The notes beneath the pieces were generated by a model. That model was not told where the DNA came from. It ran no database searches and saw nothing but the letters and a program-made list of their open reading frames with translations. Below are positions 4,055-16,903 of a stretch of 16,949 bases of DNA, piece by piece. The translations under genes were made by a program, and so were the position numbers. Origin of the DNA: a virus (lineage: Duplodnaviria; Heunggongvirae; Uroviricota; Caudoviricetes); the IMG/VR virus record IMGVR_UViG_2534681675_000024; one strand, 5' to 3'. Every line of letters begins with the position of its first letter. Within the stretch, counting starts at the first letter, position 1.

Positions 4055-5082
4055 TACCCGTCCAGAAGAAGACATTTTCACTGGCTGGTATGTCTCCAAA
4101 ATCCAGCAATATGACGGCAAAGTCAGGCATTAATACAGCAGATACAAGCAAAGTTTATCATTTGCTGGTGGTCGGAACGGATGCCTTAACCATGCCAGAA
4201 ATCTCGGGCGATGATATTAGCGTTGAGAAGGTCAGCGGCTGCGCCAGAGAATTTCTGGTCGTAGATGACCTGTTCTGCTCGCGTAGTGACTCCACAAAAA
4301 TCTTCGTCCACGCGCGTGACGTTAACGAAATGAGCGCGATGTACTGTGCTTCTGGTGCTTCCAATAGCGAGTTTTCGGAGTCCATAAAAAAGAGCTTGCC
4401 GTTATGCGGCAACACGGTTTATGGTTATAAGGCACCTCATAAAACGGGTGCCGGGATTGGCCTCCCGCTGGAGTTATCGGCGATACATGACGCGCCAGCG
4501 TCTTTTTTTGTATCGGCGCACACGCACACCTTATCAATGGTGGGCTGTATGGGGCTACCTTCGGGTAGGCTGGTTTCCGATAACGCCAGTAAGGCCAACT
4601 CCGTACAGTCCACCGCCAGCAAGATTGGTCTCTTCTGCGGTGGTTATAACAAGCCAACGTTATCGGAGGATGCCACATGCTGGCTACTACCCCTACCCAA
4701 AAACCGCAATTTATCTGGATTATCGCCGCAGTTCGCCGCGATTGCCCGACAATTACCGCCAAAATTCATCATATTGCTGCCGAGTCTGAACGCGATGCTC
4801 GCCGTTCTCTGGTGCGCGATCACGTCTGCTTTTTTGCTGGTCGTATCCGCATGGAGGTGGCACATGATTAAAACCTACGATGTGCATATGGACCCCCTCG
4901 AACGCACAAGCCAGATCATCACACTGACAGAAGTGATTAATGACATTCTGGTGAGCAACTCTCCCTCACGAGACGAAAAACTGAAGGCGTTACTCGCGAT
5001 ATTGGATCTCGCCGTTCGTGACGTTCATTTCCTGCTGGAAGGTGGCGAAATGCCAGTAAAACGGGGGGCAACCAATGAATAA
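4051..5082 (+). CDS. Uncertain long ORF (343 codons); possibly several short genes or a partly non-coding leader
   Basis: The frame is open for 343 codons and has a good SD (GGAGG, 7 nt before ATG 4051). However, the first ~270 residues are unusually Ser/Cys/Trp-rich, the frame contains a terminator-like hairpin plus T7 run (4489-4509), and two internal starts have strong SDs: 4677 in another frame (GGAGGA) and 4864 in-frame (GGAGGTGG). Confidence 0.35.
4489..4509 (+). terminator. Terminator-like hairpin (GACGC-GCCA-GCGTC) followed by T7
   Basis: A 5-bp GC stem with a 4-nt loop is followed immediately by TTTTTTT. The stem is short, so function is uncertain. It lies inside the dubious 4051-5082 ORF. 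Confidence 0.3.
4864..5082 (+). CDS. Small hypothetical protein (72 aa), alternative in-frame start within the 4051-5082 ORF
   Basis: A strong SD (GGAGGTGG, 4853-4860) sits 3 nt before ATG 4864. The downstream sequence has ordinary helical-protein composition, and its stop overlaps the next start (ATGAATAA at 5075). Confidence 0.4.
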   Translation: MIKTYDVHMDPLERTSQIITLTEVINDILVSNSPSRDEKLKALLAILDLAVRDVHFLLEGGEMPVKRGATNE

Positions 5083-6354: not shown

Positions 6355-8706
6355 ATGCGAAACATTGATCTTATCCGTCAGGTTATCAGTGCGTCTGAAA
6401 ACAACTGGCCTCATGTGCTGGGCTGTCTGAACATAAATGTCCCTGACTCTCCGCGCCGTCATGCTCCCTGCCCTGCATGTGGGGGCAAAGATCGATTCCG
6501 GTTCGACGACAACGGGCGCGGTAGCTTCATCTGTAATCAGTGCGGCGCTGGTGATGGGCTGGATTTAATTAAACGCGTAAATAACTGCGACACAACAGAG
6601 GCGGCGCTTCTTGCCGCTGATGTTCTGGGTATTGATTACCGGACAACGGAAACACCAGAAGCCACCAGCCAGAAACGGGAACAACTGGAAACCGAGCGCC
6701 AGCGACGCGAACAGGAGCGCCTGAAAAGGGCAGAGAAGGACGAACAACAAAGACGGGATACGTTTTCCCGTCAGTTTGATGACATGCGCAGAAAGGCTGT
6801 AAACGGCAAATCTGATTATCTGGTTGCGAAAGGGGTAGGTGATTTTACATTCCCCGTGTTGCCAGATGGATCTCTGTTGCTGGCGCTGGTGGATAAATCC
6901 GGCGCAGTCACAGCAGCACAGACTATTACCTCACATGGTGAAAAAAGACTCCTGACAGGTTCAGCAAAGCGGGGGGCGTATCACGCCATAAACGCACAGA
7001 AACGACCTCACAGCATCATAATTGCTGAGGGTGTGGCTACCGCCCTGTCGTGCCATTTAATTCGCCCTGACGCAATGACAGTGGCAGCAATCGACGCTGG
7101 CAACCTGTTGCCAGTAGCGGAAGTCATGCGCAGAACATATCCACAGGCACAAATCATCATTGCCGCAGATAACGATCACCAGCAAGGAAACTCCGAAAGT
7201 GGAGGGATCAACACGGGGAAAGATGCCGCAGAGAGGGCCGCTATTTCCGTAGCTGGCTGGGTGTCTCTGCCACCGACTGACTATAAAGCCGACTGGAACG
7301 ACTATCACCAACAACACGGGCTGGCGGCAGCCACAGCAGCATTTAAAGATTCGATGTACCAGCCACGGGGGAAAGGGGCGCAGGTGAAAAATCACAAACA
7401 GTCAGTCGGGGCGCTTAATGAGATCAGTTCTGGCGAGGTGTTAAGCGATGATGAAATTGCTGTCCTCAAAGAAATCAACCGGACGTTTACGCATGTCACC
7501 ATCGGCGGGAAACACAAGGTGGTGTCGCTAAAGCCTTCTCAAACCGGCGGTGTATCGCACGTTTTCGAGGATTTATCACAATTTCAGCATTATTTTCATC
7601 ATAAACCGAGAGTCGCCAGAAAGCTGGCGGGATCGGCGTGGCTGTCATGGAGTGGGAAGAACTACAAGCCAGGAGGCGTAGGATTTTATCCAGTACCAGA
7701 CAAATGCCCTGACGATGTTTTTAATCTGTATGAGGGGCTGGCACTGGAACCAATTGAAGGAGATTGCACGGTATACCTTAATCACCTGTTGCAGGTTGTC
7801 TGTGCCGGTAATGAAGAGGCATACCAATATCTTATCCAGTGGATGGCGCACATTATCCAAAAGCCTGATGAAAAACCGTCCGTGGCAATCGTGATGAAAT
7901 CTGTCCCGGGCACAGGGAAAGGCACAACGGTTAAACCGCTGCTGCAAATACTGGGGCAGTACGCCGCCCACATTAACGGGGCGGGACATATTTCAGGGCG
8001 CTTCAATTCAATACTTGCTAACAAGCTACTGGTATTTGCTGACGAAGTGACGATCCACAAGCCGTCTGAAGCTGACAGACTTAAAGCGATTATTAGCGAA
8101 CCGACGTTTAACCTTGAGCGCAAGGGAATTGATGCTGAACCAATGCCGAATTTTGCCCGGTTGATATTTGCCAGTAACAGCACACAGGTATTACAGGCGG
8201 GGATAAGAGAGCGCCGCTATCTCGTGCTTGAGCCATCTCCTGAAAAAGCACAGAGCCGGGAGTATTTTGATCGGCTGTACAGTTGGCTTAATGATGGCGG
8301 TGCCGCAAAGTTGCTTTGGCATCTTAAAGGGGTGGATCTCTCAGGTTTTGACCCTCAACGAGCGCCACAGACCGATGCCTTACGTGAAGAAATCTTGCTG
8401 GGGCTGTCTGGCGTTGAATTGTTTCTTTATGGCGAGCTAATCAATGAACCTCCGTTTAATGGCGAAGTCCGTTTGTTTGCAAAGGATATGGTTAGTCGAT
8501 TTGTAGCGTGGTCGCTTGAGCGTGGGGAAAAGCTTAAAGAGCCAGCAGCCAGATCACTACTGGGTAAATCACTTGCACAAATGGGGCTGGTGAAGCATGG
8601 AAGACCAGACCGAGGGAATGGCGTGTTCTACGAACTACCAGAGGTCGGAGTTCTACAGGCTGCGTTTGCCCGTCTGATCGGTATGGGGGGTTATGATGTT
8701 TTTTAA
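6355..8706 (+). CDS. Replicative primase-helicase (zinc-finger + Toprim primase domain, C-terminal P-loop NTPase; P4 alpha / D5-like)
   Basis: 783-aa ORF with a G-rich SD. It has an N-terminal zinc-binding pair (CPACGG ... CNQCG), a Toprim-like acidic core (IIIAEGVATALS and AADNDHQQGN), and a C-terminal Walker A-like loop (VPGTGKGTT) with a Walker B-like hhhhDE (LLVFADEV). Size is close to P4 alpha. Confidence 0.9.
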   Translation: MRNIDLIRQVISASENNWPHVLGCLNINVPDSPRRHAPCPACGGKDRFRFDDNGRGSFICNQCGAGDGLDLIKRVNNCDTTEAALLAADVLGIDYRTTETPEATSQKREQLETERQRREQERLKRAEKDEQQRRDTFSRQFDDMRRKAVNGKSDYLVAKGVGDFTFPVLPDGSLLLALVDKSGAVTAAQTITSHGEKRLLTGSAKRGAYHAINAQKRPHSIIIAEGVATALSCHLIRPDAMTVAAIDAGNLLPVAEVMRRTYPQAQIIIAADNDHQQGNSESGGINTGKDAAERAAISVAGWVSLPPTDYKADWNDYHQQHGLAAATAAFKDSMYQPRGKGAQVKNHKQSVGALNEISSGEVLSDDEIAVLKEINRTFTHVTIGGKHKVVSLKPSQTGGVSHVFEDLSQFQHYFHHKPRVARKLAGSAWLSWSGKNYKPGGVGFYPVPDKCPDDVFNLYEGLALEPIEGDCTVYLNHLLQVVCAGNEEAYQYLIQWMAHIIQKPDEKPSVAIVMKSVPGTGKGTTVKPLLQILGQYAAHINGAGHISGRFNSILANKLLVFADEVTIHKPSEADRLKAIISEPTFNLERKGIDAEPMPNFARLIFASNSTQVLQAGIRERRYLVLEPSPEKAQSREYFDRLYSWLNDGGAAKLLWHLKGVDLSGFDPQRAPQTDALREEILLGLSGVELFLYGELINEPPFNGEVRLFAKDMVSRFVAWSLERGEKLKEPAARSLLGKSLAQMGLVKHGRPDRGNGVFYELPEVGVLQAAFARLIGMGGYDVF

Positions 8707-8730
8707 TATAGTCTTTTTACAAGAAGATCG

Positions 8731-8840
8731 TTTTTACCTGTACCACCTATACCACTTTGCTAATTCAGTATTAAAAACAGTGCGTTATAGTGGTACAGGT
8801 CAATATCTTACCTATACCAGACCTGTACCACCTATACCAT
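8731..8840. repeat. Iteron-like repeat cluster 1, immediately 3' of the primase-helicase gene (candidate ori)
   Basis: CCTGTACCACCTATACCA occurs at 8737-8754 and 8822-8839. An inverted copy TGGTACAGGT lies at 8791-8800 and an extra CCTATACCA at 8811-8819. The same core family recurs in cluster 2. Confidence 0.6.
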
Positions 8841-8882
8841 TAACAAACGCATTTCTTCTGGCTGGCTGAGAGGAAACAACCA

Positions 8883-9113
8883 ATGATGAGCACACCATTT
8901 TACAAAGTGCGCCAGTTAGCTTCTTCCTCTGGCTGGCAGCTGCGGTTTGAGGGGCGTTCAGACTGGCTACCCATTGCGGCATGGGCGAATGTTGAAATGT
9001 GTATTGACGGCGATACCGTTGAAATCATTATTCCCTGCGTGGCAAGTCGGGACGGCTGTATAGAGCCAACAGATATGGCAGCAGAAATCAGAGAGGTAAA
9101 ACATGAACAATAA
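8883..9113 (+). CDS. Small hypothetical protein (76 aa)
   Basis: SD GAGAGGA upstream of ATG 8883; its stop overlaps the next gene's start. No domain recognised. Confidence 0.6.
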   Translation: MMSTPFYKVRQLASSSGWQLRFEGRSDWLPIAAWANVEMCIDGDTVEIIIPCVASRDGCIEPTDMAAEIREVKHEQ

Positions 9114-9840
9114 CTATTGCATACCGCAGGGAATGACCAGAACGGAGCGCGAAGAATTAAAAAGTTTCGCTACACAGTGCGGGAATGCTGGCGACATCCA
9201 AAGTCTGGAACGCACTTTAATTATGATTGCGCACTGGATGCGTCAGGGGCAAAGGGTTTCATTTACTGAATATGCCAGCCAGTGGACAGAGGCACAGCGC
9301 GAACGGAGCGACGGTAATCACTCAACACCCGAAATGGCGAAGCAATGGCCTTTCAGTGGTAAACGCTGTATCAGTCCCGGTGGTTCAGATTATTACCCTG
9401 CTGGTGTGGGAGATGAGCCATGTTGTGACGAGACTGAAATCCGCCACGCAGTGACAGTAATTACCGCTGAATACCCACAATTTAACCTTGACGGACTGGC
9501 GCTCCACAACCGGAATGCGGACTGGGAAAACCCGCTTGATAACCCGTCATTTATCGTATCGGCGAAAAGCTGCCTGAGATGGATCAGAGACAACGGGATG
9601 AGTAATGCCCAGATTGAGAGCTTCCCGCAGGATAACCCCACATCTGACACGTTGAAGCATGAAGTGGAGCGATATAACCAGATAAACCACCAGCACAGTG
9701 ATCACCCGCACTATATCCCCAACGGAGCATTTATTGCGGCGATGGTGGCAAGCGGCTACAAGGTTAAGCCAGCGGGAAGAATGAACGCATTTTTCAATAT
9801 TTCAAAAAAGGGATTATGTGCTGCTATGGGTAAAAATTAA
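9103..9840 (+). CDS. Hypothetical protein (245 aa)
   Basis: SD GAGAGG before ATG 9103, coupled to the upstream gene. Protein-like composition, no recognisable domain. Confidence 0.7.
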   Translation: MNNNYCIPQGMTRTEREELKSFATQCGNAGDIQSLERTLIMIAHWMRQGQRVSFTEYASQWTEAQRERSDGNHSTPEMAKQWPFSGKRCISPGGSDYYPAGVGDEPCCDETEIRHAVTVITAEYPQFNLDGLALHNRNADWENPLDNPSFIVSAKSCLRWIRDNGMSNAQIESFPQDNPTSDTLKHEVERYNQINHQHSDHPHYIPNGAFIAAMVASGYKVKPAGRMNAFFNISKKGLCAAMGKN

Positions 9841-9845
9841 ATAAA

Positions 9846-9949
9846 TGGTACAGGTCTGTACAGGTGGGGAGAGGTCATTTTTACCCACCTGTACCACCTA
9901 CAGGCCGCGTCACACAAGGGTTTGTGACATGGTGGTACAGGTGGTACAG
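9846..9949. repeat. Iteron-like repeat cluster 2 (same family as cluster 1) plus a GTCACA-N8-TGTGAC palindrome
   Basis: TGGTACAGGT at 9846-9855, CTGTACAGGTGG at 9856-9867, ACCTGTACCACCTA at 9887-9900, and tandem inverted GGTGGTACAGGTGGTACAG at 9931-9949. A palindrome GTCACACAAGGGTTTGTGAC lies at 9909-9928. TTTTTACC precedes the repeat in both clusters. Confidence 0.6.
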
Positions 9950-10314
9950 CAAAAACAGCGATTTTCTTTATAAGGTATGTTTTGCTCATCTGGCAGGCGG
10001 AGGTATTCGCTGCGGTTTGGCACATAGCCCAGAACAGCAAAGAGTTTTACGAGACTTTTGTAAAATCCAGTGTACAAGGGCGTGACGTTTTTGAAGGAGA
10101 GACCTACGAAATTTTCGTAGTTCAAAAAATAGCCTCTGAGATGTTGTTATGCCTGTTCAGCAAACCATCCGCATAGCTGATCGCGAATCAAATTACCAAT
10201 GGAGCCAGAAGCAAGGGCAGAACTGGAAAGCGCCTGCCGTGAAGAGTAATGCGACATCGTAAATATAGTTTTTAGAGTCCATAAAAAACCTGTCAAAACC
10301 TGACATACAGAACG

Positions 10315-10442: not shown

Positions 10443-10616
10443 ATGGCTATTTCAGTAAAGCCAGTATTGATAAGTGAGAAGCAAATGGAAGCGATAAAGA
10501 AAATTCAGGAGGAGCAGCGTAAAAAATCAGAGGTAGGAGTTGCGCCAACGATCCACGAAATTGCTCGGGGATTAATGGATAAGGCGCTGGCTTACACTTT
10601 AACTGGACGTGGGTAA
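10443..10616 (+). CDS. Small hypothetical protein (57 aa), first gene of a three-gene operon
   Basis: Not in the supplied ORF track (below its length threshold). ATG 10443 is preceded by a strong SD (AAGGGGG). The stop at 10614-10616 lies 4 nt before the next ATG (10621). Helical composition; a regulatory role is only a guess. Confidence 0.5.
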
Positions 10617-10620
10617 ATTT

Positions 10621-12087
10621 ATGGCTACTTGGCAACAAGGAATCAACTCAGGCGGTTTTCTGGCTGGCATCGGTACGCAAAATGAGAATGCGCCAAAGGC
10701 AAGCGACATTAACGCAACGCTTGGTCTGATCCGCGAAAACAATGAACTGGCTCGCTCAGGTGCAAATAACGTTGGTCTGACCGCGTTACGTGGTCTGGCT
10801 GGAGTTGCTGATATTTATAAGCAGGAACAGCAACAGAAAGCGATTAATGCGTTCAATAAGGTTCACGCTGATGCATGGGCTTCTGGTGATCCATCGGGAC
10901 TATTTAAGTTTGCCCAGGAAAATCCAGCGTTTGTTGCACAGGTACAACAGGCGTTTTCTGGTCTTAATGATCAGCAACGCAACGATATGGGCGATTTAGC
11001 CATGAGGGCTAACGTCGCTCTTTCTCAGGGACCGGAAGCCTACAGTAAATTCATTACTGACAACAAGGACAGGTTAAATCGCGTTGGTGCTAATGCTGAC
11101 TGGATGATTCAGACAGGTATCCAGAATCCAGAGCAGCTATCACACATGCTGACTACTATGTCTCTCGGTGCGCTTGGACCAGAAAAGGCGTTTGCTGTTC
11201 AGGATAAGATGGTTGGTCGTGAGATTGACCGAGGCCAGCTGGCAGAGACAATCCGCAGCAATAAGGCTGGAGAGGCACTTCAGGCGAGAGGGCAGGATAT
11301 TAGCCGAGCAAATGCGTTAACGTCAGCATATGCACCAACAGCCGCAATGCAGAATTACAATCAGTACGCGCAAATGTTAAAGGCGGACCCAGAGGGGGCG
11401 GCGGCATTTGCGGCAGCGGCTGGAATTAATACAAACGCCAAAAAATTAATGAGTGTTAGAGAAAACGATGATGGCACTGTCACAAAATACTACACAGACG
11501 GAAGTGAAGAGCAGGGAAAACTAAACCAGCCAATATCTGGAGATGGGTTTCGTCCAATAGCTTTGCCAACAGCCCAAAAGATCATGGAAAAGTCGCCAGA
11601 AGGGGCTAAAAAAGCTGCTGGATTTGCATACAGGGTTAGGGATGCTCTTGATTCAATAGATACACTGAAAGACCAGCTTAGCCCACAGCGAGTGGCGATC
11701 ATTAATAATGCTTTGGGTAATGGGACGCTGGCTAACTTAACGCTCAGCCCAGCAGAGCAGCAATACGTTGTTAATGCTAATGACGCAATAATGGCAATAC
11801 TCCGTCAGGAAACAGGGGCATCTATCCTACCAGCTGAAATGTCCAAATATTATCAAATGTATTTCCCTCAGCCTGGTGATTCCACAAAAACCATTGATAC
11901 CAAGCGCCGGAAGATGGAAAACCAGTTCAATTCGCTGAAAGCTGCTTCTGGTCGAGCTTATGATGCTTTGCGGGTTATTTCAGCAGTTGACAGAGGAACT
12001 TCTTCTTCGTCGCAGACATTGCCGCAATCTGAGCAGGTATCACAGCCAGCAGCCAGCAGTAATTTTTCTTCACTATGGGGTGATTAA
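10621..12087 (+). CDS. Large hypothetical protein (488 aa), Cys-free, Ala/Gln/Asn/Gly-rich, predicted mostly alpha-helical
   Basis: ATG 10621 chosen over the track's 10609. No Cys, few aromatics, Q/A-rich low-complexity stretches, and no enzymatic motif I can identify. Its stop overlaps the next start (TAATG). Confidence 0.8.
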
Positions 12088-14192
12088 TGGCTAAAGCATG
12101 GAAAGATGTTATCGCTTCTCCACAGTATCAGGCGTTAGCACCAGAACAAAAAGCGCAGGCTCAGGAGCAATACTTCAATGAAGTCGTGGCCCCGCAAGCC
12201 GGAGAAAGTGTAGAGCAGGCTAAGCAGGCTTTTTATGCTGCCTATCCACTACCATCAACGAATGAAATAAACCGATCCCAATCAGCAACTCAAAATATTC
12301 AACATACATCATCTGATAATTCTCTTGCGTCAGGGTATGCAAAGTTAGCTACTCAGCAAAGAGAGGGGCTTGAGCGTTCAGCAGAACAGGGAGCCAGTCT
12401 TGGGGCTGCGATGCGCGATGCTATAACAGGCGAAAGCCGAATGACTCCAGAGATGGAGAGACTGCAAAATGTCGACCTTGCCCCAGAGTTAACCTCACTC
12501 AGCATGGATGCTCTAAAAGCTCGATGGTCTCAACTTTTCGGCTCTGACGCATCTCAGGAAAAGATTCTTCAGAGCATGGGAGCGAAATTAAGGCAGGATG
12601 AGAAGGGTAACACTATCGTTTCCCTGCCATCCGGTGATTATGCTCTGAACAAGCCGGGTTTATCGCCGCAAGACGTGGCATCGTTTCTGGCTAATGCGCT
12701 GGCGTTTACACCAGCGGGCAGGGCTGGAACGGTGCTTGGTGCCATAGGAAAATCAGCAGCTACAGATTTAGCACTACAGGGAGCCACCAGCCTTGCTGGT
12801 GGAGAAGATATTGATCCGTTACAAACGGTAATTTCTGCTGGCATTGGTGGTATTGGTAAGGGGCTGGAAAATACAGCGAGTGCGGTTTCGAGGGCTGTTC
12901 GTGGTGATATGTCGCCTGAAGCAAAGGCTGCTGTCGACTTTGCATCGGAAAGAAATCTGCCGTTAATGACCAGTGACATGCTGAAAGATAAAACCTTTAT
13001 GCAGAGTCAGGCTCAGACATTAGGCGAAAGAGTTCCTTTTTTTGGAACCGGTAAGAATCGGCTGAATCAACAACAAGCACGAGAAAATTTAGTCAGAACA
13101 TTTAGCGATGGTCTGGGGGGAATTTCAGATAAACAGCTTTATGAGTCTGCGACTAAAGGGCAGCAAAAATTCATTGAGGCAGCAGGAAAGCGATATAACC
13201 GCATAATTGACGCTATGGGGGATACCCCTGTCGATCTCTCAAACACGGTAAAAACTATCGACAATCAGATTGCCGTGTTAAGCCGCCCTGGCAAATCTCA
13301 GGATAGAGCCGCGGTAAAAGTCTTGCAGCAATTTAAAGACGATATCACCAGCGGACCAAATGACCTGCGTCTGGCGAGGGAAAACAGAACCGATCTTCGA
13401 AAGCGATTTATAGCGTCATCTGACACTGTTGATAAAGATACGCTCCAGAAAGCCAGCGATATTATCTACAAGGCATATACGGCGGATATGAAAAAAGCCG
13501 TAGCCAAAAATCTTGGAGCAGACGAAGCCATTAATATGGCAAGGGTTGATCGCTCATGGTCTAAATTCAATGACATGATGGGAAGAACGCGCGTTCAAAA
13601 GGCAATAGCCAGCGGCAAGGCCACGCCTGAGGATGTAACAAAACTCGTTTTTAGCCAAAGCCCATCAGAACGTTCTCAGCTTTACAGGCTTCTGGATGAC
13701 AATGGTAGGCAAAACGCACGAGCAGCTATAGTTCAGAATGCTGTAGATAAGGCGACTGATCCGTCTGGAAATATCAGTGTTGAGAAGTTTATTAATGCGT
13801 TACACCGGAACAGGAAGCAATCAGCAACTTTCTTTAAAGGCGTACATGGAAAGGAACTGGACGGCGTTATTAAATACCTCAACGATACAAGACACGCGGC
13901 AAAAGCGAACGTTCAAAACTTAAATGGTCAGCAGCTTTATGGATTGTTAGTTGGTGGTGGCATCATAAACGCAGCAGTATTAGCGGGGATGCTAAAAACG
14001 GCTGCGTTTGTTGTTCCTGCTGCTGGTGCCGTAGGCGGAGCAGCGAAGGCATACGAAAGCCCTGTTATACGAAATGCCTTGTTACGTCTGGCAAATACGC
14101 CAAAAGGTAGCACAGCATATGACAGAGCGATCAGTACGGTCACACAATCGCTCACCAGAGTCGCACAGGCATCACAAAAAGAATCTCAATAA
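12087..14192 (+). CDS. Large hypothetical protein (701 aa), Cys-free, helical, with a C-terminal Gly/Ala-rich hydrophobic hairpin
   Basis: Long uninterrupted ORF coupled to the upstream gene. The segment LYGLLVGGGIINAAVLAGMLKTAAFVVPAAGAVGGAAKAY (about nt 13934-14056) looks like a membrane-insertion hairpin. GIGKG and GAIGKS do not fit true Walker A spacing. Confidence 0.85.
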   Translation: MAKAWKDVIASPQYQALAPEQKAQAQEQYFNEVVAPQAGESVEQAKQAFYAAYPLPSTNEINRSQSATQNIQHTSSDNSLASGYAKLATQQREGLERSAEQGASLGAAMRDAITGESRMTPEMERLQNVDLAPELTSLSMDALKARWSQLFGSDASQEKILQSMGAKLRQDEKGNTIVSLPSGDYALNKPGLSPQDVASFLANALAFTPAGRAGTVLGAIGKSAATDLALQGATSLAGGEDIDPLQTVISAGIGGIGKGLENTASAVSRAVRGDMSPEAKAAVDFASERNLPLMTSDMLKDKTFMQSQAQTLGERVPFFGTGKNRLNQQQARENLVRTFSDGLGGISDKQLYESATKGQQKFIEAAGKRYNRIIDAMGDTPVDLSNTVKTIDNQIAVLSRPGKSQDRAAVKVLQQFKDDITSGPNDLRLARENRTDLRKRFIASSDTVDKDTLQKASDIIYKAYTADMKKAVAKNLGADEAINMARVDRSWSKFNDMMGRTRVQKAIASGKATPEDVTKLVFSQSPSERSQLYRLLDDNGRQNARAAIVQNAVDKATDPSGNISVEKFINALHRNRKQSATFFKGVHGKELDGVIKYLNDTRHAAKANVQNLNGQQLYGLLVGGGIINAAVLAGMLKTAAFVVPAAGAVGGAAKAYESPVIRNALLRLANTPKGSTAYDRAISTVTQSLTRVAQASQKESQ

Positions 14193-14211: not shown

Positions 14212-14826
14212 TTAAATATCTCTGCTGTCTCCATTAGGAAATAAAAGATAATATGGATTTGCCTTTCTTGCTCTCCTTGCTTCACCTGGATACCTGTTAG
14301 TCAGTAGCTTGCATAATGAGCAGAGAACAACACTCAAGAAAATTCCGAATGAGAAGATCAATATCTCACCAAAAATCAATGGCGATATTAAATTTTCAGG
14401 ATTTAATGATAAGTCAATGTTAAAAACATATTGAGCAATACCAGTAAGTATCAATAATATAATCCCTATGGAATACATTGCTGTTTCCCAAACATCAGAC
14501 AGTCTATTTTTGAATTTTTCGCTGGAGTAGTAGTTTGTTATAAAGTCAGAAAAATCACTCTCATATGCATCATCTTTAGGTGATGTTAGAAATCCTCTGT
14601 CTCTCCATACCTTCTCCCAATTAGTCGATTCTTTTTTTAAGGAAAAATAAATATGTATTGCCAAAAGGATAGCCAAAATTGGTGTTAGCTCTAAAAAATA
14701 GAATGTTATGGAATAAATAATACTGCCATGTTCAAACTCATCTGGGACTATCATGTATGCACAAAAATAAATTGAAAAGTACACCATGCAGATAGTTAGC
14801 AATTCTTTAGTATCTTTTCTGCTCAC
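14212..14826 (-). CDS. Integral membrane protein (about 204 aa, four predicted TM helices), strongly AT-rich
   Basis: Four hydrophobic stretches of about 20 residues each, with a basic C-terminal tail (RRARK). GTG start at 14826 is preceded by SD AAGGGGG; an alternative ATG is at 14787. The gene is markedly AT-rich relative to its neighbours and converges on the 701-aa gene with only 19 bp between stops. Confidence 0.8.
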   Translation of the reverse strand: MSRKDTKELLTICMVYFSIYFCAYMIVPDEFEHGSIIYSITFYFLELTPILAILLAIHIYFSLKKESTNWEKVWRDRGFLTSPKDDAYESDFSDFITNYYSSEKFKNRLSDVWETAMYSIGIILLILTGIAQYVFNIDLSLNPENLISPLIFGEILIFSFGIFLSVVLCSLCKLLTNRYPGEARRARKANPYYLLFPNGDSRDI

Positions 14827-15007
14827 ACCAACCCCCTTTAGCGTTGTTTAGAATGGCAATCATCATATATCCAAGACATGGCATTTGGTACATAGCTTGG
14901 GTCGGGATTTCAAATCCGCTCCCAGTTGATGGGGCCGTTACATTACGCGCATATCCGCTTTATGTGAAACAGGAAGATTTTTCTGATATCACTGCCACAG
15001 CAAACAC

Positions 15008-15036
15008 CAATTTCGTGACCAGTACGCGCGCGAGGG
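15008..15036 (+). repeat. Repeat family copy 1 (CAATTTCGTGACCAGTACGCGCGCGAGGG)
   Basis: About 29 nt with a CGCGCGCG core; matches copy 4 (16904-16933) at roughly 23 of 29 positions. Confidence 0.6.
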
Positions 15037-15041
15037 GTATC

Positions 15042-15063
15042 AGTTGCAAAAAATTTTGCAACT
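15042..15063. repeat. Near-perfect palindrome AGTTGCAAAAAATTTTGCAACT between repeat copies 1 and 2
   Basis: 9-bp arms GTTGCAAAA / TTTTGCAAC. A related palindrome GTGCAAATTTGCAC lies at 16746-16759. Confidence 0.5.
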
Positions 15064-15065
15064 AC

Positions 15066-15094
15066 GTCCGACCAGTACGCGCACGATGGAGGGG
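15066..15094 (+). repeat. Repeat family copy 2 (GACCAGTACGCGCACGATGGAGGGG)
   Basis: Shares GACCAGTACGCGC-CGA---GGGG with copy 1. Confidence 0.55.
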
Positions 15095-15295
15095 AGTACC
15101 ATAAAACTGTTCTCTACATGAGACAGAGTGGTGGTGATGTGTTGATTATCGGCGTATATGCGCACAGGACGCGCTATGACGATGTTTTATGCGGGTACAC
15201 CAATCACATGTATCTGGTGTGATAAATCGCGTTACATGACATCTCATGTTGTGCTGGTGATTATCACGACGTTCTGAATCTGGCCTTTGCCTGAT

Positions 15296-15322
15296 ATTTT
15301 GCGACAAGTACGCGCGCGTAGC
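15296..15322 (+). repeat. Repeat family copy 3 (TTTTGCGACAAGTACGCGCGCGTAGC)
   Basis: Same GAC-AGTACGCGCGCG core. A weaker partial copy (CATTTTGTGACCAATGCG) lies at about 15349-15366. Confidence 0.55.
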
Positions 15323-15346
15323 ATCAACAGCATACACATTGGATAT

Positions 15347-15547
15347 TCATTTTGTGACCAATGCGATAAGTAGCGGGATAAGAATTGATAAAATCAACAG
15401 GACGATGATCCACTTTTGATTCTCGTCCATCTTATCTGCTAGGCGACGCTCCATTCCGTGCATATCACCGCGAATGGCAATCATCTCATTGCGAACATCC
15501 GAGAAGTGGTTGGCTTGATGTTCAATGTGTGGCGTTCTGCCTTTCAT
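15347..15547 (-). CDS. Small C-terminally anchored membrane protein (66 aa), XhlA/holin-like topology
   Basis: ATG at 15547 with SD GAGGA about 7 nt upstream. Polar, charged N-terminal half followed by a single C-terminal TM helix (WIIVLLILSILIPLLIALV). The family call is tentative. Confidence 0.6.
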   Translation of the reverse strand: MKGRTPHIEHQANHFSDVRNEMIAIRGDMHGMERRLADKMDENQKWIIVLLILSILIPLLIALVTK

Positions 15548-15626: not shown

Positions 15627-16082
15627 TTATACGCTGACCTTACAATCAATCACCGCTTTTAACTTTTCAGCATTGCTTCCCTGACGCTTCCACGCGCTGT
15701 AAATATCTTTATCCCACGCTTTACCAGCTTTTGTTTGATAGCCTGCTTCATTGATCCGTTCAGCTATCACACGCCCATTATCAAATCCCTGTTGGATGGT
15801 ATCGGCAATGATCTTTATAACTGCCGTTTCGTTATATGGTTTTGGTGGGATGTTCGGCTTTCCGGCAATAAGCGACGCAGCGGCTTTTTCCATGCGCTCC
15901 ACCAGCCCAAGCATTCGTGAATCAATAGACTTTTCCGGCTGCCCCAGCTTCATGCGAATCGCATCAACAAGCCAAGAGGTTTTATCTCCTCCAGAAGCGA
16001 GAACAGACCGATTAAACTCATCCTGCAATTCAGATGGGATGCGGAACGCGATCAGATTAGATTTGCTCATTGCAAAGACCAT
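15627..16082 (-). CDS. Ribbon-helix-helix (Arc/CopG-like) DNA-binding protein with a C-terminal recombinase-like helical domain (151 aa)
   Basis: The N-terminus has a classic RHH pattern (LIAFRIPSELQDEFNRSVLASGGDKTSWLVDAIRMKL). The C-terminal segment GRVIAERINEAGYQTKAGKAWDKDIYSAWKR resembles the recombinase-domain motif of serine recombinases, but there is no catalytic domain. Start could be 16082 or 16070; no clear SD. Confidence 0.7.
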   Translation of the reverse strand: MVFAMSKSNLIAFRIPSELQDEFNRSVLASGGDKTSWLVDAIRMKLGQPEKSIDSRMLGLVERMEKAAASLIAGKPNIPPKPYNETAVIKIIADTIQQGFDNGRVIAERINEAGYQTKAGKAWDKDIYSAWKRQGSNAEKLKAVIDCKVSV

Positions 16083-16183
16083 ATCAGTGAGTAATATCCA
16101 TACAGTATACCACTGTATAACACTGTTATACGCTCAAATATCAGCCAGAAAATAACAGACCAATCACAAATCTATCGCTGTGT

Positions 16184-16306
16184 TGTTGGTTCAGAGCTGG
16201 GCTGTGTTGGTTCAAAATGAGTTGATGTTGGTTCAATATTTTAGAAAAAACACAATAAAAACAACGCTCTTTACAAATTGAACCAACTGAACCAACTGAA
16301 CCAACA
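16184..16306. promoter_or_regulatory. Operator/iteron array: three TGTTGGTTCA direct repeats at 21-bp spacing plus three tandem inverted TGAACCAAC copies
   Basis: Direct copies at 16184-16193, 16205-16214 and 16226-16235. After an AT-rich spacer, TGAACCAAC repeats sit at 16279-16287, 16288-16296 and 16297-16305. A TATAAT hexamer at 16323-16328 and SD GAGAGG precede the perC-like ATG. Confidence 0.7.
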
Positions 16307-16341
16307 CCTTTTTGCTTATCTATATAATCTGAGAGGCAGAA

Positions 16342-16629
16342 ATGATAAAGGACAGGAAAGCTGAAGAGCTGGAGTCAAAAGGGCTATACCGGAGAGCTGC
16401 CGCGCGATGGGCAGAAGTCATGATGCTGGCAGATGGCGATAAAGAACGTGAACATGCAGCAAACAGACGCTCTGAATGTATCCGTAAGGCGGCACGCCCA
16501 CCAGCAACTACAGACAGATTCGGAGATTTAAGACAGGCAGTTAAGCGGACTCATTCGGCTCTTGGTATGGATGAGGAAGCGAGAGGGTACTTCAGGCGTT
16601 ATCGCGATAAAGATTGCCAGAGACAGTAA
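16342..16629 (+). CDS. PerC-family transcriptional regulator-like protein (95 aa)
   Basis: Size and the N-terminal motif ESKGLYRRAAARWAEVM resemble PerC/Pch-family regulators known from EPEC/EHEC plasmids and prophages. TATAAT and an SD lie upstream. Confidence 0.7.
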   Translation: MIKDRKAEELESKGLYRRAAARWAEVMMLADGDKEREHAANRRSECIRKAARPPATTDRFGDLRQAVKRTHSALGMDEEARGYFRRYRDKDCQRQ

Positions 16630-16903
16630 TGCTCTCTCTGTTTTGGCAAATTACCCCTCACTTTGAAGGGATCGGAGCTATAAAAATGGTGTTATCCGGC
16701 TTCCTCAAATTGAGGATTGTGGAAGAATCAATGGGTTAGGTCATCGTGCAAATTTGCACTCTGCCAGCCAACGCAATTTCTCGTTGGCGGAAATATCAGG
16801 TATTTACTGAACGAACGGTCTACCAGTCTGTTCAGTTACCAGTTGCACATGGCTGTTTCATGTGAGAACGGAGGTTTTTTTCGGACATCGCTATTGGGTA
16901 CAG

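Follow-up and report, generated by a model that had tools for sequence, protein, structure and literature searches.

The origin of phage-inducible chromosomal islands (PICIs) in Gram-negative bacteria is by definition the region immediately 3′ of pri-rep (PMC6092414). Origins of SaPIs contain 6–12 iterons downstream of rep about an AT-rich centre, with at least two iterons per side in opposite directions, and these are read by the winged-helix domain of the Rep C-terminus, two hexamers being thought to load on either side (PMC9371898). EcCIMP1 is a PICI of E. coli MP1 that is mobilised by the P22-like phage Kapi1, and its PerC-like protein EcCIMP1_025 repressed a LEE1 reporter (PMC11773190). 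The paper that defines EcCIMP1 describes no origin, and a text search of it for iterons was without match (PMC11773190). The present study analyzes a repeat array in a stretch of viral DNA of 16,949 bp (the window), which spans from the start codon of an integrase almost to attR of an island of approximately 17–19 kb located between yicC and dinD in many E. coli genomes. Its 5′ part encodes, in order, the integrase, AlpA, an AntA-type antirepressor, Ash, several small ORFs and a fused primase-helicase, and its 3′ part consists of P22-like ejection proteins, a variable cargo region, the array and perC. Because this gene organisation is the same as that of EcCIMP1, the window is an EcCIMP1-like PICI. 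Parts of it were matched in 2,134 of 5,426 complete E. coli genomes; EcCIMP1-like islands are common in this species. We consider it highly probable, from comparison of sequences, that the array is a complete PICI-type origin module of the replicon of a DUF927-type Pri-Rep, orphaned in the window by a swap of the initiator. This reading is built on the anatomy of the array, its paralogy, positional association, covariation and the module swap, from which Rep binding, origin firing and promoter control would follow.

The array lies at positions 16184–16306, and the features in and around it are as follows.
15627–16082, minus strand: 151-aa gene with an RHH-like N-terminus and a confident helical C-terminal domain (AlphaFold2 model).
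16100–16131, no strand assigned: ATACAGTATACCACTGTATAACACTGTTATAC, a conserved repeat motif beside the start codon of the 151-aa gene and outside the array (conservation, covariation).
16184–16235, plus strand: left iteron set, three direct copies of (T)GTTGGTTCA at 16184, 16205 and 16226, the spacing of 21 bp being two helical turns.
16236–16278, no strand assigned: AT-rich centre, a presumed DNA-unwinding segment, with conserved blocks AAAAACAA and CTTTACAAAT (composition, conservation).
16279–16306, minus strand: right iteron set, three head-to-tail copies of TGAACCAAC with a 9-bp period, facing the left set (exact matches).
16307–16341, plus strand: promoter-like box and perC leader TTTTTGCTTATCTATATAAT, with TATAAT at 16323–16328 (read from the sequence).
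16342–16629, plus strand: PerC-family gene related to EcCIMP1_025 and oriented away from the array (Pfam PerC, E = 3e-33).

The repeat array is real and highly non-random. Six exact copies of GTTGGTTCA occur on the two strands of the window, all inside 16185–16305, where simple arithmetic predicts approximately 0.13 exact copies of a given 9-mer by chance. They lie at 16185, 16206 and 16227 on the plus strand, exactly 21 bp apart, and at 16279, 16288 and 16297 on the minus strand, head-to-tail. Extended to a 10-mer, TGTTGGTTCA, the repeat is exact on the plus strand (16184, 16205 and 16226) and at 16297–16306 on the minus strand, with one mismatch in each of the minus-strand copies at 16279 and 16288, leaving the 9-mer as the common core. 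The 43 bp between the two iteron sets are 79% A+T, compared with 53% window-wide. A preliminary description of this DNA had proposed six copies, three of them direct at exact 21-bp spacing and, after an AT-rich spacer, three tandem and inverted, between divergent genes for a 151-aa protein and a perC-like product, and in all of these respects the array is as described. The description also had the repeats running up to the −35 of perC; the last repeat does occupy the −35 position, its end (ACCAAC) lying 17 bp upstream of TATAAT, but ACCAAC is not a −35 consensus. Scanning both strands of 16000–16420 for the sigma-70 consensus detected no full promoter. Among 68 distinct homologous arrays, repeat positions were identical to the window in 0.92 of cases on average, compared with 0.58 for non-repeat positions, some conservation figures being inflated, as homologous arrays were gathered through an anchor motif and viral contigs through the iteron. 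Repeats 2, 3, 5 and 6, which lie outside the collecting anchor, were conserved at 0.94–0.99 in the same 68 arrays, with copies 2 and 3 at 0.99 and the 11–12 bp between copies poorly conserved.

The array has the layout of published PICI origins, with three plus three copies of GTTGGTTCA around a 43-bp, 79% AT spacer (definition in PMC6092414), and where SaPI origins carry at least two opposed iterons per side (PMC9371898), it carries three on the plus strand and three on the minus strand. The likeness to the PICI/SaPI origin (Ubeda et al.; Fillol-Salom et al. 2018, PMC6092414; PMC9371898) thus includes two opposed sets of short iterons, here of 6 copies in all, about an AT-rich centre, and it extends to a paralogous copy of the array directly after the 3′ end of a fused pri-rep gene, whose DUF927 part matches 8tch, and to covariation of the iterons with the Rep C-terminal domain. 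There are also differences. Rather than immediately 3′ of rep, the array lies approximately 7.5 kb past the stop codon of the resident Pri-Rep gene (8706), before perC and overlapping the perC promoter. It is a second module, whereas the PICI literature compared describes only the origin 3′ of rep. Moreover, the cognate Rep is absent from the window, in which the resident Pri-Rep is of the DUF5906 type and has ACCTRTACC iterons of its own; iterons matched to the DNA-binding domain of an initiator were found instead for the DUF927 family, by covariation with its last ~100 aa. The configuration, a distal second module that overlaps the perC promoter and has been orphaned by an initiator swap, is unreported, the kind itself (a PICI iteron origin) being known.

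For P4, work attributed to Flensburg & Calendar 1987 and Ziegelin et al. 1993/1995 reportedly gives the ori/crr iteron as TGTTCACC, and crr is said to be two direct 120-bp repeats, as opposed to the facing sets of the origin module described here. Like the islands compared here, P4 is a satellite with a fused primase-helicase-DNA-binding initiator (alpha domain order, PMC2777425), and it has two separated clusters of one short iteron, direct and inverted, several kb apart. A two-cluster layout was found for GTTGGTTCA in EcCIMP1 and in two other islands (L001 and L002), and for ACCTRTACC in the window. Unlike in P4, the cognate Rep of the array is DUF927 (MCM/Cch-like) and not SF3, and the P4-alpha-like Rep of the window uses other iterons. 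Iteron plasmids carry extra iteron clusters away from the primary origin, as in P1 incA and the alpha, beta and gamma origins of R6K, which serve to control copy number (handcuffing) or, by looping, provide alternative origins; the initiators are of RepA or pi type and depend on DnaA and on host helicase loading. The array is similar to these in being an additional cluster of initiator repeats distant from the primary origin, but the initiator in the present case is a primase-helicase that loads itself, and the additional cluster is laid out as a full origin.

The same repeat occurs next to replication genes in related islands. In E. coli OkiPb01689 (L001), where the segment that runs from the 151-aa gene to perC inclusive has 99.9% identity to the window, a second GTTGGTTCA array begins 26 bp past the stop codon of the primase-helicase gene and consists of three tandem copies, an AT-rich spacer and inverted copies. 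Both arrays are also present, and arranged in the same way, in L002. EcCIMP1 itself (L230) contains 12 exact copies of GTTGGTTCA in exactly two clusters 8.4 kb apart; the first is located 3′ of the gene for its DUF927 Pri-Rep (WP_001244111.1), and the second, the distal module at 9853–9973 of L230, is upstream of perC. By BLAST, positions 16226–16312 of the window align in reverse with 12507–12421 of L001 at 85% identity, spacer included, which indicates that the perC-proximal and Rep-proximal arrays are inverted paralogues. In L004, an island inside a prophage, the two modules are adjacent and directly follow the rep gene, approximately 300 bp in total, and the second module is followed by a TTTTTGCTTATCTATA box with no perC downstream. 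The preliminary description had named an iteron-type origin with an AT-rich segment as an alternative to a regulatory site; that idea gains from the PICI-type layout and the paralogy, but the array itself is a distal second copy and its cognate initiator is not encoded in the window. As a separate observation, approximately 120 nt after the promoter-like box of L004 (12100–12240) end in a terminator-like hairpin and contain no ORF, as seen in prophage-embedded DUF927 islands; this transcript-like stretch matched no Rfam family and may be an origin-linked small RNA.

Array contexts were counted in viral contigs collected by the 18-nt pattern TGAACCAACTGAACCAAC alone, taking arrays with at least 3 exact copies and at least 1.8 kb of flank on both sides (n = 57). 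A DUF927-type primase-helicase gene adjoins 51 of these 57 arrays; two others are at the 5′ end of perC, one of them also beside a 151-aa gene, and four have no recognised neighbor. Over all loci compared there were 79 array-gene adjacencies, with a gap of 27–89 bp, the array always at the 3′ end of the gene, and Rep identity to L001 of 63–100%. A profile of the DUF927 C-terminal half, scanned against one genome per species, identified 80 loci across Enterobacterales (Reps 53–100% identical), 78 of them with sufficient downstream sequence. GTTGGTTCA was used in 41 of the 78, other 9-mers in approximately 33, and in 4 there was no clear repeat. The alternative iterons include GTTGTCTCA, GTCGGTTCA, CGTGGTTCA, ACGGGTTAY, GTGGGTTAT, GTTGTACCA, GTCGGGTCA and AGTGTGTCA, and wherever the extended form with two juxtaposed modules occurs, both modules have the same variant. 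Among Reps approximately 85% identical to one another, all nine columns that separate users of GTTGGTTCA from users of GTTGTCTCA fall in the last ~100 columns of the alignment (for example GYQRKSPRIxGRQ vs GYQGRV-REDGRQ), as do 22 of the 24 columns that separate users of ACGGGTTAY. The DUF927 profile matches PDB 8tch, deposited as “Pathogenicity island protein” (E = 8e-18), and 5dgk, “Active helicase” (E = 2e-7). Taken together, position, covariation, specificity residues and homology suggest that the C-terminal domain of the DUF927 Pri-Rep is most likely the reader of GTTGGTTCA. Natural pairs of iteron and Rep C-terminus are thereby available for specificity studies of DUF927-type self-loading helicases, and the EcCIMP1-like family now has an assigned origin, together with the domain of its cognate initiator and a distal second module before a PerC-like virulence regulator. 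AlpA or another backbone protein was considered as the binder and rejected, since the upstream small ORFs and the N-terminal half of the primase are common to the window and L001 (92–98% DNA identity), yet the iterons 3′ of rep differ between them, and only the C-terminal block of Rep differs as well.

In the window the replication region is of another type, with the following features.
6355–8706, plus strand: resident primase-helicase with Zn-ribbon, Toprim and DUF5906/SF3 domains (Pfam), not cognate to the GTTGGTTCA array.
8736–8838, no strand assigned: putative resident origin module, six ACCTRTACC iterons in two sets with an AT-rich centre, starting 30 bp past the Pri-Rep stop codon.
9847–9942, no strand assigned: second ACCTGTACC iteron cluster, at the distal edge of the swapped block and 1 kb further downstream than the first.

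Between the Pri-Rep of the window and the DUF927-type Pri-Rep of L001, the match is limited to residues 1–345 (86% identity), with unrelated sequence after that, and the divergent block of DNA extends from 7190 to 10040 in the window. The two ACCTRTACC clusters at 8736–8838 and 9847–9942 are, to judge from their sequence and position, the island’s own predicted two-part origin; they bracket two small ORFs, at 8883–9113 and 9103–9840. ACCTRTACC iterons are also found 3′ of a DUF5906-type Rep that is 51% identical, in L224. The window-type replication block was present in 140 of 5,426 E. coli genomes and was nearly always at least 99% identical. The replacement of the replication module by a DUF5906-type Pri-Rep with its own iterons leaves the perC-proximal GTTGGTTCA module an orphan. 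The comparison shows that replication modules, comprising the helicase and DNA-binding half together with the iterons, are exchanged as a block and that mismatched origin modules are left behind. In the four other DUF5906-type islands, which have different integrases and cargo, the six iterons are intact in three, with substitutions outside the iterons only, although this comparison comprises those four relatives only and is confounded by frequent recombination. In the fourth, L227, half of the array has been lost in a 107-bp deletion (region 17208–17260), together with the −10 box of perC; the missing parts of the array are iteron 3, the spacer and all three tandem iterons. An extra ACCTGTACC cluster lies in L227 at 18013–18100, just beyond the expected attR. 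Intact iterons in DUF5906-type islands could reflect a function without a Rep in cis, such as another binder or a role in the perC promoter; a recent swap, or frequent recombination with islands of the DUF927 type, could account for them equally well.

The mechanism that we propose for the orphaned origin module is as follows. Each module would consist of two opposed sets of three 9-bp iterons with a 43-bp AT-rich unwinding segment between them. In cognate islands one module would lie directly 3′ of pri-rep, and the second, its inverted paralogue, either adjacent to the first or, in EcCIMP1-like islands, approximately 8 kb off before perC. Induction driven by AlpA would lead to production of Pri-Rep in these islands; by analogy with the SaPI Reps, the Rep C-terminal domains would occupy both iteron sets of each module, the tight one (9 bp) and the loose one (21 bp) (PMC9371898), hexamers would load on both sides and the AT-rich centre would melt. 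Recombination would then have replaced the helicase/origin-binding part of Pri-Rep and the adjacent origin (7190–10040) with a DUF5906 (P4-alpha-like) version in the window. The orphan module would probably not fire with the resident initiator, though a DUF927 Rep supplied by another island in the same cell could bind it in trans; in cells lacking such an island it is probably silent as an origin. Because the tandem iterons are on the −35 position of perC, a cognate Rep, when present, would probably gate perC. The promoter that points outward after the tandem set is conserved in several genera, and since the tandem set covers the −35 position, occupancy by Rep would probably switch the downstream accessory gene, which here is perC. 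The distal module may function in copy control, as an enhancer like crr or as an additional origin.

A further step is much more tentative, and we regard it as unlikely though worth stating: EcCIMP1-like islands may have a split two-module origin that brackets the ejection and defense cargo, the distal module being kept across initiator swaps because it works in trans. If that were so, the DUF927 Rep of one island could replicate, or switch perC in, a co-resident island with its own type of Rep, with satellite-on-satellite hitchhiking or, alternatively, incompatibility through shared iterons as the outcome. Exchange of replication modules as a block bears on satellite replication, on cross-talk and exclusion among co-resident satellites and on the coupling of perC expression to induction of the island.

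The operators of RHH proteins such as Arc, Mnt, CopG and omega are short direct or inverted repeats with helical-repeat spacing near a divergent promoter. The repeats of the array are likewise short, direct and inverted, with helical-repeat spacing and a divergent promoter nearby, and the preliminary description had accordingly proposed that the array is a cooperative operator for the 151-aa protein, dimers of which would control both divergent promoters. The neighbor itself does lend this proposal some appeal, as the 151-aa gene lies next to the array in divergent orientation, its product shows a strand-helix-helix pattern at the N-terminus, a homologue is called “Arc-like DNA binding domain protein” in one source, and a spacing of 21 bp would suit binding on one helix face. 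The 151-aa family is widespread in Enterobacterales (354 homologues, none with a Pfam domain), and in most homologues the start is MSKSNL, corresponding to 16070 in the window. The protein of the window had no Pfam match and no match in a sequence search of the PDB (best E = 0.93). The AlphaFold2 model is confidently helical over residues 80–150, with pLDDT of 39–61 in the N-terminus, where helices are placed at 17–29 and 34–46; Foldseek of this model, with its low-confidence N-terminus, against the PDB was without match (E > 2). An RHH fold is plausible, the low-confidence N-terminus of the model being compatible with it.

The distribution of array and gene is not consistent with an operator of this kind. 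The array and perC occur without the 151-aa gene, and with other genes upstream, in L002, L003, L074 and EcCIMP1, homology to the window starting at the first repeat in L002 and at the second in L003. Conversely, most homologues of the 151-aa gene have no array: it is absent upstream in approximately 16 of approximately 22 distinct homologue lineages, with no GTTGGTTCA upstream of the homologues in L005, L013, L036, L050, L083 and many species-representative loci. In the array-based search, homology to L005 stops at 16170 of the window and homology to L002 starts at 16184, suggesting a recombination or cassette boundary between the 16100–16131 motif and the array. That motif is kept upstream of homologues 63–78% identical, with or without the array. 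A repeated motif adjoins the start codon of every 151-aa homologue and changes with the N-terminal strand, so that SNL[IV]AFR is paired with TGTTATAC/GTATAAC (16100–16131 in the window), SLSVTFR with TGTCTTAC and KLFSFR with GTTTACA, whereas the GTTGGTTCA arrays are constant beside both the NL[IV]AF and the LSVTF classes of the protein. Given the array without the gene, the gene without the array and a strand that co-varies with its own motif, 16100–16131 is the likely, putative operator of the 151-aa protein, separate from the array. There are nevertheless distal arrays that adjoin 151-aa homologues in four other genera, Rosenbergiella, Chimaeribacter, Pantoea and Cedecea (L142, L147, L157 and L178). 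Such adjacency, found in several genera, is recurrent and not fully a matter of chance, and we read it, short of proof, as conserved gene order at the distal end of the islands. With co-occurrence failing in both directions, the strand covarying with the proximal motif and not with the iterons, the same iterons lying 3′ of DUF927 rep genes in 51 of 57 contexts and a cassette boundary between 16170 and 16184, an operator for the 151-aa protein is a very improbable explanation of the array.

A different possibility is that the array serves a factor independent of Rep, such as PerC or a protein of the helper phage or host, and mainly controls the promoter of perC or another accessory gene, for which reason it would have been kept after the Rep swap. 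EcCIMP1 shares the order of array followed by perC, and downstream of the tandem iterons a similar T-rich/TATA box is present in distant genera as well as in elements that lack perC. Conservation of this promoter-like box, the location of the tandem iterons where a −35 box would be expected in a promoter that has none, and the intact module in DUF5906-type islands, with substitutions outside the iterons only, are all points that such a factor would explain. Against these, the iteron changes together with the Rep C-terminus across the family, and does so in both modules; arrays are abundant in elements without perC, perC genes in other contexts have no array, and in L227 the array was deleted along with the −10 box. 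Control by a Rep-independent factor is accordingly an improbable main function. A search for related loci with the single PerC protein found only 3 close relatives. PerC as the binder was rejected, as there is no array upstream of perC in L005, L088, L099, L102 and L103 and most arrays have no perC nearby.

The array falls within the final kilobase of the island, and arm sites typically comprise repeats in both orientations, so that a role in recombination or packaging may also be considered, with the repeats as arm-type sites of the integrase or an excisionase near attR, or as a pac-like site of the helper phage. This is the least probable of the explanations, indeed hardly credible, in view of the approximately 720 bp from the end of the array to the candidate att core GGTGTACATAAT, just outside the window, the lack of iteron copies near attL, and the presence of the same iterons in islands that have integrases 25–29% identical and are inserted at other sites, some inside prophages. 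The distance to the att core, an attL without copies and the same iterons beside unrelated integrases led us to reject integrase arm sites and a pac site alike. An inverted repeat, ACTGAACGAAC ... GTTCAGT, was noted at 16806–16837, approximately 190 bp upstream of the candidate att core; it is iteron-like at 8 of 9 positions.

Several other features of the island were observed. DNA ejection proteins similar to P22 gp20 and gp16 are encoded at 10609–14192 (Pfam Inj_translocase, E = 4e-118; phrog_770), but capsid and terminase genes are absent from the island, as has been observed for EcCIMP1. A variable cargo slot (14212–15547, minus strand) separates the ejection genes from the array and encodes a membrane protein of 204 aa, for which there is a weak SieA-like match, and a protein of 66 aa (phrog_6324). 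In relatives the slot holds Abi, ImmA/IrrE or HTH genes, and for this reason it looks like a defense hotspot. An Rfam scan of the window gave no match at the array and matched only C4 and isrK, both elsewhere. In the ash/antirepressor region, at 4432–4620, isrK (64 bits) and C4 antisense RNA (77 bits) occur in tandem, a P1/P4-type RNA immunity module inside a PICI.
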